DNA from: Thermoproteota archaeon
GTDB lineage: Archaea > Korarchaeota > JAOZGF01 > JAOZFZ01
Length of the DNA: 64,000 nt
Assembly (NCBI GenBank): GCA_027492035.1
Contig: JAOZFT010000004.1
Span: 416,001 to 480,000 of the forward strand
Direction of reading: 5' to 3'
Both the position numbers and the translations under genes were made by a program. Below are positions 3,964 to 39,082 of the stretch, in pieces (position 1 is the stretch's first letter; every line of letters starts with the position of its first letter). The notes beneath the pieces are model-generated. The model did no database searches, had not been told where the DNA came from, and saw only the letters and a list, made by a program, of their open reading frames with translations.

Positions 3964-4054
3964 TGGGCCCGGCGGGATTTTCAGATTCCTCCCTTTGAAC
4001 CCGCGACACCCGGGTTAAAAGCCCGGTGCTCTAGCCTTGCTGAGCTACGGGCCC
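3964..4054 (-). tRNA. tRNA-Lys(UUU) with 16-nt T-loop intron (3978-3993, position 59/60)
   Basis: GGGCCCG acceptor stem, CCGGG-CTTTTAA-CCCGG anticodon arm; TTCAAA|intron|T with TTCA/TGAA central helix. Confidence 0.92.
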
Positions 4055-4118: not shown

Positions 4119-4237
4119 TCCCGTCGGCAGGATTTGAACCTGCGAACCTGCCGGTTTCTGCATGGGCGACTGCTGTCGAAACCTCCTCCTCTAGAGGTTT
4201 CTACAGCCGGCCGCTCTACCAACTGAGCTACGACGGG
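4119..4237 (-). tRNA. tRNA-Tyr(GUA) with 45-nt intron at 37/38 (4156-4200)
   Basis: CCCGTCG/CGACGGG acceptor (C1-G72), GCCGG-CTGTAG|intron|A-CCGGC, CTGT/GCAG helix, GGTTCAAATCC T arm. Confidence 0.92.
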
Positions 4238-25404: not shown

Positions 25405-26758
25405 CTACTTTCTAATTTTTATGTATTGGTAGGCTTCAGCAGCTGTCTCGAAACAGTAATGTACCTCTTGGAAGCTTTTTTTGAATTCTTTTACATCATT
25501 TAATACTTTCTCAGGTTTCTCTTTGTCTATTATTACTCTTTTCATAAAGTCTGCAATTTCCTCCATGTCTTGTTCCTTCATCCCTAGCCTTGTAACTTCA
25601 CTTGTACCTAGTCTTATTCCGCCTGGATGCTCGTAATGTCTCCCTTCCCGAATATCCCAGGGTAAAAGGTTTCTATTAACTATTATGTTTGCCTTTTCCA
25701 GTTCTTTTTCAATTGCTGCACCATCTCCATACTCCGAAATATCTACGAGTAATGTATGACTCTCAGTGAACCCTTTGTCAGCTGCTACCACCTTGAAGCC
25801 TCTCTCATAAAGTGATTCCCCAAGTTTTTTTGCGTTCCTAATTATTTGTTTTGCGTATTCTTTTCCAAACTTTAGGTGCTCAGTTAAAGCTATAGATAAA
25901 GCTGCTACGCAGTTTAAGTGGTGGTTACTCACTAGCCCAGGGAAAGTAGCTCTTTTAATTTCCTCGAAACACTCCTTTTTCCCTACAACCATCCCATGTT
26001 GAGGACCTGGTAAAGTCTTGTGGGTTGACATTGAAATCACGGCTGCTCCTTCCCGCAGAGGGTCCTGAAACAAACCTGCCCCTATTAAGCCCGCTACATG
26101 AGCTGCATCATAAGCCATAACTGAACCTACTTCTTGAGCTGTTTCGACGAACTCTTTCACTGGATGTGGAAACAAGAATACACTCCCTCCAAACATTAAC
26201 AGTTTAGGTTTCTCCCTCTTTATCTTTTTTATGGATTTATCTACGTCAATGTTCATTTCTTCTTCATTGAATTCGAAGTATTCCACGTTTAATCCTTTCA
26301 CAGCACCTGCTGTGCCTCCTATGAATGAACCAGTTTTTGATTTTAAAGGACCAGCTGAAATATGTCCCCCCTTACTTATAGGTAAGGCGAAAATTTTGTC
26401 TCCTGGTTCGGTGAAGGCCGTATAGACAACTAAATTGGCCACAACACCAGAAATAGGTCTTACGTCAGCAAATTCTGACCGGAAAAGTTCTTTAGCTAAC
26501 TCAATAGTTATTTCTTCCACTTCATCTATATATTTGCAGCCTGCATAAACTCTCTCTCCGGGCCAACCCTGCAGAAGCCCTTAGTTTTCATCTAAGGACT
26601 TACTCTGCGTATCTGTGCCCGAAGTCAGAAACTAATGCCTCTCTGACAGCTGGACTCGTCACATTTTCACTGGCAATTAAAGGGATGGCATCTATAAACC
26701 ATTCATGATGTTTCTTCAACAAATCGAAAATTCTTCTGTAACTTTCTTCAGGTTCCAA
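25405..26758 (-). CDS. glyA: Serine hydroxymethyltransferase, two exons: 26758-26603 and 26568-25405; 439 aa after splicing
   Basis: Exon 1 LIASENVTSPAVREALVSDFGHRYAE joins exon 2 GWPGERVYAGCKYIDEVE...YDAAH...STHKTLPGPQ; SD GGTGATGG before TTG start. Confidence 0.93.
26569..26602 (-). other. 34-nt BHB intron in glyA mRNA
   Basis: GCAG-[AGU]-AAGUCCUUAG-augaaaa-CUAAGGGCUU-CUGC-[AGG]; cutting after bulge nt 2 joins GAG|GGT (Glu-Gly); intron carries in-frame TAA and TGA. Confidence 0.9.
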
Positions 26759-26895: not shown

Positions 26896-28032
26896 TTGGA
26901 AAATATGTCAGAGGTTAAAAAAATGGCGGAAGCCGAAGTTACTTTAAGCGGTGAACTAAAAGGGAGAAAGGTATTCTTAGAAGGTCCAAAAAAGTCCATA
27001 CAAGAGTACATAAATAAAGGCTTTGGTTATTGGGAGGCTGACTCTGAAACTTTAGAGCTTCACCTCATAGAAGCCCTTTATCTCCTAGAAAAAAATAAGA
27101 TAAATCTTTATAAAGGGGAAAAACAGTTGGAAAGGAGCGATTTACTTAATGAATTGAAGGAGAACGAAAATGATTTCTTAAGATACCTTGTTTACAAAGA
27201 TTTAAGGGATAGAGGGAGGATAGTAAAGATTGGACCCTTAGATTTCCTTAGGCTCTTTGTTGGCCAGTATAAACCTGAGGATTCTGTTTCAAGATATTTT
27301 ATTTTCGCTTTATCTGAAGAAAAGCCTATGCTGTTTCAAACACTTACGAAGTTAATAAACGAAAGCTCGAAACTTAGGAAAGAACTACTGTTAGCCATAG
27401 TCAACGATGAAGGAATAATCTCTTACTATGTTACACGGAAAATAGATATTTTATCAATTGATGTTCCACATTTAGATTTTGAAAATGTTGAAGCTTACCT
27501 GTACGGTGACCGTTTAGTCATTTGGAACATAGAAAAAGCCAGAGAACTGTATGAGAAAGGTTTTTTCGGGCATCCGATAGGGATAAGGAAACCTAAATCC
27601 TTTGAGTTTGAACAACCATCTCTCCTGTCTCTCTACGAAGCCCATTACTTGCTGAAAAAGAAAAAAATAAAAGTCATCGACCCAAAAAACGGTAAAGAAC
27701 TGGATCTGGAATCTTTCGTAGAGAAAGCTAAAAGTTTAAGGGAAAGGTTTGACATACGTTGTCAAGTATATGACTACTGGCGTGACAAGGGCTATGTGGT
27801 GAAAAGTGGTTCACTGTACGGTGTAGACTTTATAATCTATTTAAGAGGCCCTGGAATGGATGAACATTCAAAGTACATGAACCATGTTTATTCAGAAAGT
27901 TCAAGTTTCATACCCTTAGAAATTATTAGGGCGGGAAGAGTAGCTACTACTGTAAGGAAAAAACTAATCTTATCTTTATTAAACAAAAAGGGGGAGATAA
28001 ACTTTTACAAGTTTTCTTGGCATAAACCTTAA
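26896..28032 (+). CDS. endA: tRNA-splicing endonuclease, two fused units (structural plus catalytic)
   Basis: Unit 1 LHLIEALYL/YLVYKDLRDRG; unit 2 with catalytic Y (SGSLYG), H (DEHS), K (VRKK) and GHPIGIRKPK loop. Confidence 0.95.
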   Translation: MENMSEVKKMAEAEVTLSGELKGRKVFLEGPKKSIQEYINKGFGYWEADSETLELHLIEALYLLEKNKINLYKGEKQLERSDLLNELKENENDFLRYLVYKDLRDRGRIVKIGPLDFLRLFVGQYKPEDSVSRYFIFALSEEKPMLFQTLTKLINESSKLRKELLLAIVNDEGIISYYVTRKIDILSIDVPHLDFENVEAYLYGDRLVIWNIEKARELYEKGFFGHPIGIRKPKSFEFEQPSLLSLYEAHYLLKKKKIKVIDPKNGKELDLESFVEKAKSLRERFDIRCQVYDYWRDKGYVVKSGSLYGVDFIIYLRGPGMDEHSKYMNHVYSESSSFIPLEIIRAGRVATTVRKKLILSLLNKKGEINFYKFSWHKP

Positions 28033-31816: not shown

Positions 31817-31911
31817 TGGACCGGGTGGGATTTGAACCCACGACCTCCGCGAATCTGCTTTAAAGATTTAAATCGCCAACGCGGCGTTCATTCCAACTGA
31901 ACTACCGGCCC
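31817..31911 (-). tRNA. tRNA-Ala(GGC) with 21-nt intron at 37/38 (31853-31873)
   Basis: GGGCCGG/CCGGTCC acceptor with G3-U70, CCGCG-TTGGCG|intron|T-CGCGG; relaxed BHB (TTGG/GCAG). Confidence 0.9.
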
Positions 31912-37477: not shown

Positions 37478-38929
37478 TTAACCTTTCACAACCCCTACAG
37501 GTTTCATCCTGACTACTAACAGAGAAACTCCTGCTTTATGCATGGATAAAGTAACTTGATCGACATTTTTATAGCTTCCAGGTGCCTCTTCTGCAGCTAC
37601 AGCGAAAGATGCAGGTTTTACATAGATCCCTCTGCTCTGGAGTTCACTTACTACCTGCCTACCTGAATACCTCCTCTTCGCTGCTGCTCTGCTTAAAGTC
37701 CTCCCGCTTCCATGACATGTTGAACCGAATGTTTCCTCCATTGCTTTCTTTGTTCCAATTAAAACATAAGATGCAGTGCCCATTGAACCGGGAATTAATA
37801 CAGGTTGTCCAATTTCTCTATATTCTATAGGTATTTCTTTCCTCCCTGGCCCGAAAGCACGTGTAGCTCCTTTTCTATGCACATAAACCCTAATTTTTTC
37901 CCCATCCACTTCATGTTCTTCAAGTTTCGCGATGTTATGAGCAACATCATAAACTACCTTCATTCCAAGGTCTTCAGAGCTTGCGTTGAAGATTTTCTCA
38001 AAGGTTTCCCTTGTCCAATGTGAAATAAATTGTCGATTAGCGAAGGCATAATTTACTGCACATTTCATTGCTTTAATGTAATCCTCAGCCTCTCTCGACT
38101 TCACATATGCGCAGGCAAGCTGTTTATCCGGTAACTTAAAATCCAGTTTGTTTGAATAGCCAAGCATAACCTTTAAGTAATCTGTTGCTATTTGATGACC
38201 GAATCCCCTGCTTCCCGTGTGGAGCATGACAACAATTTGTCCAAGTTTTTGGAAACCAAGTTTCTCAGCTATTTCTTTATTGAAGATTTTGTCTACAACT
38301 TGAATTTCTAAGAAGTGATTACCTGACCCGAGGCTCCCCAATTGGGGGCAGCCTCTTTGTTTAGCTCTTGAGCTAACCTTAGCGGGGTCAGCTCCTTCCA
38401 TCTTTCCGTTTTCTTCAATATATCTTTCATCACTCTCTAAACCGTAACCATGCTCAATAGCCCATTGGGCACCTTCAACACAGATTTCCTCTATCTCTCT
38501 AACCGTGAAACGGATTTTCCCTTTACTTCCCAAACCTGAAGGCACATTTTCAAACAATTTATCAATTAAATTTTTCAATTTAGGCTTCACATCCTCAAAA
38601 GTAAGAGAAGTAACCATTACCCTAACTCCGCAGTTAATATCGAAACCCACTCCTCCAGGGGAAATAATTCCCTCTTCAGTGTCAAAGGCAGCAACCCCGC
38701 CAATGGGAAAACCATAACCCCAATGTATGTCAGGTAAACCTATAGCATATTTCTGTATCCCAGGGAGCATGGTTATGTTAGCTAACTGATCTAAGGCTCC
38801 TTTCTCAACTCCTTGGAGCAAAGATTTTAAAGCAATAACTAAACCCTCTGTTTTCATGCCTTTCTTATAACTTTTAGGAAGTAACCATCGCACTTCATCT
38901 ATTTGTTTCAGGAAAGACTCAACTCCCAT
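37478..38929 (-). CDS. rtcB: RNA-splicing ligase RtcB
   Basis: PDIHWGYGFPIGGV, GFDINCG, GSGNHFLE, HTGSRG, DVAHN, VHRKGAT, STCHGSGR, EEAPGSYK. Confidence 0.97.
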   Translation of the reverse strand: MGVESFLKQIDEVRWLLPKSYKKGMKTEGLVIALKSLLQGVEKGALDQLANITMLPGIQKYAIGLPDIHWGYGFPIGGVAAFDTEEGIISPGGVGFDINCGVRVMVTSLTFEDVKPKLKNLIDKLFENVPSGLGSKGKIRFTVREIEEICVEGAQWAIEHGYGLESDERYIEENGKMEGADPAKVSSRAKQRGCPQLGSLGSGNHFLEIQVVDKIFNKEIAEKLGFQKLGQIVVMLHTGSRGFGHQIATDYLKVMLGYSNKLDFKLPDKQLACAYVKSREAEDYIKAMKCAVNYAFANRQFISHWTRETFEKIFNASSEDLGMKVVYDVAHNIAKLEEHEVDGEKIRVYVHRKGATRAFGPGRKEIPIEYREIGQPVLIPGSMGTASYVLIGTKKAMEETFGSTCHGSGRTLSRAAAKRRYSGRQVVSELQSRGIYVKPASFAVAAEEAPGSYKNVDQVTLSMHKAGVSLLVVRMKPVGVVKG

Positions 38930-39082
38930 TTTCTTACCTCCTCTCAACCCTTTTTTTTAACATTTGTGCCTTTAAAAAATCTAGGAGAACAAAATAAAAA
39001 CAGAAACCTTTTAAATATTTCATAGGAAAAATAAAGCTTTAAAATGTAAAGTAAATAAATTTTCCTCAATAAAAGGAAATGG

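Follow-up and report, generated by a model that had tools for sequence, protein, structure and literature searches.

The glyA gene of a Thermoproteota archaeon assigned by GTDB to the Korarchaeota, which encodes serine hydroxymethyltransferase (SHMT), is interrupted by an insert of 34 nt, and this insert is best read as a bulge-helix-bulge (BHB) intron of the glyA pre-mRNA, a reading to which we give a probability of about 0.85. The gene is located in a stretch of 64,000 nt, referred to below as the window, which represents positions 416,001 to 480,000 of contig JAOZFT010000004.1 (G000:C9:416001-480000). The whole genome (assembly GCA_027492035.1, here G000) comprises 1.87 Mb in 42 contigs and is 93% complete. 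The insert occupies positions 26569-26602 of the window on the minus strand. It is very likely that it belongs to a widespread and previously unremarked family of glyA introns found at one conserved site, and a core metabolic enzyme, SHMT, most likely depends on RNA splicing in this archaeon. The parts of the gene are as follows.

26603..26758, minus strand: glyA exon 1, 52 codons, from the TTG at 26758 to the GAG codon (Glu52) at 26605-26603
26569..26602, minus strand: predicted 34-nt BHB intron, from the third nucleotide of the 5' bulge (the U of UAA) to the second nucleotide of the 3' bulge (AG)
25405..26568, minus strand: glyA exon 2, 387 codons and a stop codon

In the list of open reading frames (ORFs), the 5' part of the gene appears as a 52-aa frame (26600..26758), where a TAA follows immediately after codon 52 (GAG) and the protein ends with DFGHRYAE. 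The Pfam SHMT profile matches exon 1 with its positions 6-50 (E-value 2.8e-5) and exon 2 with positions 51-399 (E-value 2.9e-67). Since the profile breaks exactly between positions 50 and 51, the insert adds sequence to the SHMT family profile without replacing any part of it. Excision of exactly 34 nt by a script produces a single frame of 1320 nt, consisting of 439 codons and a stop codon. A preliminary description of this DNA, made from the letters alone, had placed an insert of this length here, with TAA directly after codon 52, and had predicted an uninterrupted 439-aa SHMT upon its removal; both statements were confirmed on the minus strand and in the ORF list, and the YAE|G motif is rejoined. 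Shifting both cut points 1 or 2 nt in the 5' direction leaves the product unchanged, because AG precedes both boundaries of the insert.

No other SHMT gene was found in G000, the next match having an E-value of 2.5e-5 and 26% identity. Exon 2 is 78% identical to the uninterrupted SHMT gene of a genome of the same family, G001, and a tblastn search with exon 1 revealed pieces 65-68% identical to it, located 5' of the inserts in two other loci (L055 and L107). Among the 120 best SHMT entries of the protein collection, the top full-length match is 78% identical and a 307-aa fragment is 99% identical; a near-identical full-length SHMT, either spliced-like or intron-less, was not found among these entries. 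Four of the same 120 entries (P0016, P0062, P0089 and P0107, one of them named as a Sigynarchaeota archaeon) are only 384-399 aa long, the usual length being about 432-448 aa. These may be gene calls comprising exon 2 only, from intron-bearing genomes.

The insert and its flanks can be drawn as a BHB motif composed of the following elements.

26605..26608, minus strand: 5' strand of the central 4-bp helix, GCAG, in exon 1 (the Ala codon and the first base of the Glu codon)
26571..26574, minus strand: 3' strand of the central helix, CUGC, within the intron, pairing with 26608-26605
26602..26604, minus strand: 5' bulge AGU, expected to be cut between G26603 and U26602
26568..26570, minus strand: 3' bulge AGG, expected to be cut between G26569 and G26568
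26575..26601, minus strand: intron hairpin with a 10-bp stem (26601-26592/26584-26575, one G-U pair) and a 7-nt loop
26556..26624, minus strand: outer exon-exon pairing, AC (26610-26609) with GU (26567-26566), and a distal 8-bp helix (26624-26617/26563-26556)

All the geometry that had been proposed for the insert, namely the GCAG/CUGC helix, the two 3-nt bulges, the 10-bp stem and the AC/GU pairing of the exons, is present in the DNA. The rule that the cut falls between the second and third nucleotides of a bulge was derived from the passage on dU14/A15 in the available part of PMC12397907. Predicted cuts after the second nucleotide of each bulge remove 34 nt and restore the Glu-Gly of the conserved YAEGW motif. 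A 76-nt segment containing the motif folds at -35.1 kcal/mol in RNAfold, compared with -18.4 +/- 2.9 kcal/mol for 200 shuffled sequences (z = -5.85), none of which (0/200) equalled it. The equivalent exon positions of the intron-less G001, inspected by eye from the DNA string, show weaker pairing than those of G000.

Other kinds of element do not account for the insert. The 34-mer, with up to 6 substitutions allowed, and its 27-nt hairpin, with up to 5, are each present in a single copy in the 1.87-Mb genome. The insert is therefore not a repeat element, and a miniature inverted-repeat transposable element was ruled out by the single copy. The GCAG seen at both ends of the insert reflects the palindromic central helix and is missing in homologues with GCGG/CCGU. 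Group I and group II introns were ruled out by size, the insert being 34 nt long (18-39 nt in the homologues) and a ribozyme core requiring a few hundred nucleotides. An Rfam scan of the window with gathering thresholds returned three tRNAs and nothing else.

Inserts at the same site of glyA occur in other archaea. They were collected with a pattern consisting of the two exon flanks and a gap of 15-45 nt, which is blind to the content and structure of the gap; the pattern requires TAC and a list of codons, so all counts obtained with it are lower bounds. A Bathyarchaeota metagenome-assembled genome (MAG) carries a 30-nt insert and a Nitrososphaerota MAG an insert of 18 nt, both with an in-frame stop codon. 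The latter, examined by eye, is a minimal BHB with a GCGG/CCGC helix, the bulges AGA and AGG and a 4-bp stem. A stricter version of the pattern matched 115 metagenome contigs, where the insert is 26-39 nt long. In the classes to which the two MAGs belong, the strict pattern matched at least 19 of 401 and at least 4 of 151 genomes, where the denominators are all genomes and not genes fitting the pattern. A looser pattern applied to genome contigs gave at least two true SHMT genes, those of the two MAGs, recognised by tblastn with both exons, among the 120 stretches listed; the other matches among these stretches were mostly chance ones from GC-rich bacteria. Further genome contigs beyond the matches listed may carry a glyA insert.

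After removal of duplicates, G000, the two MAGs and the metagenome matches provided 98 distinct sequences. In 54 of them the insert shifts the frame, in 95 it contains an in-frame stop codon, and there is no sequence (0/98) where it does neither. The lengths fall in all three frame classes with no preference for multiples of three, which means that the inserts are untranslated. The intron opens with a stop codon in 78 of the 98 sequences (TAG in 74, TAA in 4), built from the third nucleotide of the bulge and the first two bases of the stem. An unspliced mRNA would thus be terminated at once.

The BHB structure is supported by covariation between its strands. In the 98 sequences, pairs were counted at positions set by their distance from the two exon ends, a procedure that needs neither an alignment nor a fitted structure. 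The central 4-bp helix was paired in 97.2% of cells, compared with 26-70% when the 3' partner was slid by 1-2 positions, and the intron stem was paired in 82.6%. In a MAFFT alignment of the sequences (A1), 85.0% of cells were paired versus 72.9 +/- 0.5% in shuffles. The covariation score was 0.418, as against 0.190 +/- 0.008 for shuffled alignments (0/500 reached it) and 0.07-0.135 for slid partners, and nine of the 14 pairs had changed on both sides. Most telling is the third pair of the central helix, which joins the third base of the exon Ala codon to the intron: it is GC in 82 sequences, AU in 9, CG in 6 and GU in 1, and is never unpaired. The stem on the intron side was paired in 85.5% of cells in A1, with compensatory changes in all eight pairs nearest the bulges (8/8). 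RNAalifold, run with no structure given, returned three of the four central-helix pairs (19:61, 20:60 and 21:59) and six pairs of the intron stem. The BHB structure at the glyA site has been maintained in evolution by compensatory changes.

The comparison with sister genomes, which the preliminary description had put forward as a check, did not bring support of this kind. SHMT is present in 38 of 41 related genomes. The motif DFGHRYAEGW(P/V)GERVYAG is gapless and in one frame in each of the 29 relatives' loci returned (29/29), including that of the same-family genome G001. Exon flanks separated by a gap of 15-45 nt were matched in 1 of the 43 genomes of the phylum, that of G000 alone. Insert-bearing glyA genes were found in other lineages instead.

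Several points weigh against the interpretation of the insert as an intron. The closest relatives are without it, so its own lineage gives no support. The homologues were gathered by a pattern that fixes the exon flanks and is limited to TAC and the listed codons, and the genes sampled from their clades are insert-bearing ones. The exact BHB register in G000 has a folding energy of -29.1 kcal/mol versus -35.1 kcal/mol for the minimum free energy (MFE) structure, which corresponds to a Boltzmann weight of about 2e-5; the MFE register given by RNAfold has a 5-bp helix GCAGA/UCUGC, one 3-nt bulge and one 4x4 internal loop. On the exon side, the helix beside the bulges comprises only 2 bp in G000 and 1 bp in most homologues, where it is one invariant C-G pair (an A-U pair is seen in 17/98), and the BHB motif of glyA is therefore relaxed on that side. 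The fourth pair of the central helix is G.A in 9/98 sequences and the first in 2/98. Finally, the cutting, the ligation, the exact cut sites and the circularisation in G000 are deduced from DNA, and on that DNA a recent, still unpurged disabling insertion in G000 alone is possible.

This last possibility means that glyA of G000 was recently inactivated by a 34-nt hairpin insertion which is not removed from RNA. The restriction of the insert to one genome of the phylum is what such an event would leave, and a dead gene would also agree with an MFE structure differing from the exact BHB. Even so, we consider it unlikely. The site is identical to the nucleotide with that of the BHB-shaped, covarying inserts in the 115 metagenome contigs and in 25 genomes (the two MAGs and 23 others). 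The exons are otherwise intact over 439 codons, and a second SHMT gene that could replace a dead one was not found in G000. The genome also possesses genes of the enzymes for cutting and joining, and a cbf5 intron, described below.

The reading frame downstream of the insert might be used without splicing, if a 52-aa N-terminal peptide and an internally started C-terminal protein were to assemble into the enzyme. Split genes occur in archaea, and an in-frame GTG at 26520 opens an ORF of 371 aa. A start at this GTG, however, omits 16 codons, GWPGERVYAGCKYIDE, which are conserved in 29/29 relatives, and the beginning of exon 2 in the homologues, inspected by eye, lacks a conserved start codon in frame. 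The covariation of the BHB would be left unexplained, and the two-polypeptide arrangement seems very improbable.

Passage of the ribosome through the insert by translational bypassing, stop-codon readthrough or frameshifting appears less probable still. A stop codon right after the last codon of exon 1, followed by a stable hairpin, superficially resembles the arrangement of the hop in gene 60 of phage T4. Matching take-off and landing codons are absent from G000 and, by eye, from the printed homologues: exon 1 ends with GCA GAG and exon 2 is preceded by UGC AG, and landing there would lose the Glu or shift the frame. Translating through is excluded by the lengths of the homologous inserts, 18-39 nt, spanning all three frame classes, and a covarying exon-intron helix in 3-4-3 geometry would serve no role in bypassing. 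An assembly or sequencing artefact is hardly credible: the insert of G000 is known from the assembled sequence alone, but independent assemblies of many metagenomes and MAGs show the same architecture at the same site, and the insert is structured and unique and not a copy of flanking DNA.

If the insert is a BHB intron, the enzymes expected to process it are encoded nearby, as listed here.

26896..28032, plus strand: splicing endonuclease gene, 378 aa, in which the Pfam families tRNA_int_endo and tRNA_int_endo_N each match two stretches
37478..38956, minus strand: RtcB RNA ligase gene, with a PF01139 match at C9:453481-454788 (window 37481-38788), 578 bits, profile positions 1-426

The endonuclease gene is the divergent neighbour of glyA. 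The C-terminal half of its product matches the crenarchaeal catalytic subunits 2cv8, 3p1z_B and 2zyz_B. Its N-terminal half resembles the crenarchaeal structural subunit, the matches at residues 91-184 being PAE0789 (2zyz_A) and NEQ261. Judged by the list of PDB matches, the protein looks like a structural (beta) and a catalytic (alpha) unit of the heterotetrameric type fused in one chain. In the accessible portion of PMC12397907, loops of the crenarchaeal type are tied to relaxed substrate recognition by the splicing endonuclease. A distance of 11 kb separates the RtcB gene from both glyA and the endonuclease gene.

The proposed course of splicing would be as follows. The GCAG at the end of exon 1 would pair with the CUGC near the 3' end of the intron, giving the 4-bp helix with its bulges, the 10-bp hairpin and the exon-exon pairing. 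The splicing endonuclease from the adjoining gene would cut between the second and third nucleotides of each bulge. RtcB would then ligate the exons, restoring ...RYAE|GWPGER..., and the 34-nt intron would probably be circularised. The full-length SHMT of 439 aa would be made from spliced mRNA only, and translation of the unspliced form would stop at the TAA after 52 codons.

A functional link between glyA and its neighbour was considered and rejected. G001 keeps the pair with an intron-less glyA, its endonuclease being found beside glyA at positions 22-762 of locus L002 (G001:C209), and the pair is present in no metagenome locus. Since the divergent pair also occurs in G001 without the intron, the adjacency represents synteny and is probably coincidental.

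The evolutionary history of the intron was approached with a tree of SHMT. Of the 112 rows in the tree, 85 carry the insert and 27 lack it; they derive from 128 loci with near-full coverage of exon 2, where one locus was dropped for an internal stop codon and identical sequences were merged. G000 and G001 are neighbours (support 98), and both fall within a clade of their phylum that has 100% support. The adjoining clades are all insert-bearing, but this picture is biased, because they were collected by the insert pattern. For the clade of G000, the topology can be explained by a single gain in G000 or by an inherited intron that was lost twice. The insert-bearing SHMTs are 51-64% identical to exon 2 of G000, compared with 78% for the intron-less G001. 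A recent lateral donor of the intron was not found among the homologues; none is evident, since the nearest intron shares just 26 of 34 aligned positions.

It might be supposed that the intron is not neutral, although this is a tentative suggestion and rather doubtful. The intron could be old and kept in deep lineages as a checkpoint similar to HAC1/XBP1, and the synthesis of SHMT, the central one-carbon enzyme, would then be tied to the activity of the tRNA-splicing machinery. Alternatively, it could be able to re-insert at this well-conserved position, through reverse splicing or with foreign glyA DNA as the source of a short-patch conversion. Re-insertion would explain the presence of the intron in G000 alone among the 43 genomes of the phylum.

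Other genes of G000 that may require splicing include the three tRNA genes of the window predicted with Rfam.

3964-4054, minus strand: tRNA gene, 91 nt, with an insert at a non-canonical place, in the T-arm, suggested by eye
4119-4237, minus strand: tRNA gene, 119 nt, two inserts possible by eye
31817-31911, minus strand: tRNA gene, 95 nt

ARAGORN detected none of these three genes in the window. The data fit the view that all three are interrupted, and at least one seems, by eye, to have an insert outside the anticodon loop.

Outside the window, cbf5 of G000 is split by a 23-nt insert (C9:310022-310044; L291:1494-1516) located after the GHLGTL codons. It folds in RNAfold as a BHB with a CCCU/AGGG helix, the bulges AGA and AAA and a 5-bp stem. 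The match to the NCBIfam Cbf5 model NF003280 is divided by the insert into model positions 3-66 on the 5' side and 68-309 on the 3' side, the latter in another frame. A 62-nt candidate for the cbf5 intron was rejected, as it holds the conserved KAGHLGTLDP codons. The intron of cbf5 pre-mRNA is reportedly the subject of studies by Watanabe in 2002 and Yoshinari in 2006, and also of one by Yokobori in 2009 (PMC2738675). The earlier suggestion that the phenomenon reaches beyond RNA-processing genes was borne out: glyA is metabolic, and the classic cbf5 intron is found in the same genome.

A search for further introns in coding sequences was made over the whole of G000. A strict scan for the BHB motif had 232,561 matches, which yielded 13,472 ORF-joining candidates and 182 after tighter filters. 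In a scan for short introns with 4,721 candidates, glyA was ranked third and cbf5 was within the top 60; these two were judged the only convincing candidates after inspection of the top 60. Ten other candidates from the top 60 were judged false by eye on their flanking translations, as they looked like fusions of neighbouring genes (a thiolase with a zinc-ribbon protein; a CRISPR RAMP-like protein), non-coding stretches, or a dinB-like frameshift at a T run. The BHB scan misses relaxed motifs, so the search is not exhaustive: it recovered no expected tRNA intron of the window, and its one match in a tRNA gene looked spurious. Five pairs of overlapping or abutting ORFs on the same strand in the window were considered as split genes and rejected, as Pfam shows them to be separate genes (proteasome/FttA, Roadblock/GTPase, UPF0179, NERD/MoeA and the alpha and beta subunits of phenylalanyl-tRNA synthetase).

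In the DinB/Dpo4-like DNA polymerase gene at G000:C20:79355-79400, minus strand, the reading frame seems to shift where seven T stand in a row, just ahead of VEEKLNPSIKNKPVIVG. Either a frameshift or an error of sequencing could account for it; it is not a BHB intron.

If the reading of the glyA insert as an intron is correct, splicing of mRNA by the tRNA endonuclease extends beyond a single RNA-modification gene to a housekeeping gene in many uncultured archaea. The glyA genes would then offer a natural alignment where a synonymous codon position covaries with an intron, and the question would arise of how introns come to be at one site in distant lineages. In a practical respect, gene callers will truncate or drop glyA in such genomes, and for Bathyarchaeia and other such groups these miscalls can distort what is reconstructed of their one-carbon and glycine/serine metabolism.

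According to the available text of PMC7714728, cbf5 was as of 2020 the only BHB intron reported in archaeal mRNA besides that in the leader of HVO_1309. A search of open full texts, which does not cover subscription papers and supplements, found no literature linking SHMT or glyA with BHB introns; the single co-occurrence, PMC13682049, is a review of circular RNA in cancer. The closest known system is the cbf5 intron of Crenarchaeota. As far as the accessible parts of the sources describe it (PMC2738675, PMC10485636, PMC12397907, PMC7714728), it is, like that of glyA, a short intron in a coding sequence with a (relaxed) BHB. It is cut by the tRNA splicing endonuclease and then ligated, which has been demonstrated experimentally, whereas the splicing of glyA is predicted. 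Its distribution, as described there, is patchy, with gains and losses, and is tied to broad-specificity endonucleases of the crenarchaeal type. The host genes differ, glyA encoding a metabolic enzyme dependent on pyridoxal phosphate and cbf5 an RNA-modification enzyme, and the glyA intron, unlike the cbf5 case, is seen in numerous metagenome contigs and in three or more lineages of high rank.

In HVO_1309 of Haloferax volcanii, according to the available part of PMC7714728, the splicing endonuclease acts on an mRNA and not on a tRNA or rRNA, as is predicted for glyA. The same part of that source places its intron in the 5' untranslated region, where, in contrast to glyA, the frame is untouched, and reports that it was found by sequencing of circular RNA and confirmed in vitro. 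The eukaryotic HAC1/XBP1 system, processed by IRE1 with tRNA ligase or RtcB, also has a short, frame-changing mRNA intron removed without the spliceosome, as given in the accessible text of PMC13149111. There too, the unspliced form yields a different or truncated product. HAC1/XBP1 differs from glyA in its endonuclease, in the recognition structure and in having a demonstrated regulatory role. The BHB introns of archaeal tRNA and rRNA share with the glyA intron the arrangement of 3-nt bulge, 4-bp helix and 3-nt bulge, the short length range and, presumably, the same enzymes. The glyA intron is distinguished from them by its mRNA host, where codons limit the sequence that the exon half of the motif can take and a synonymous position covaries with the intron.

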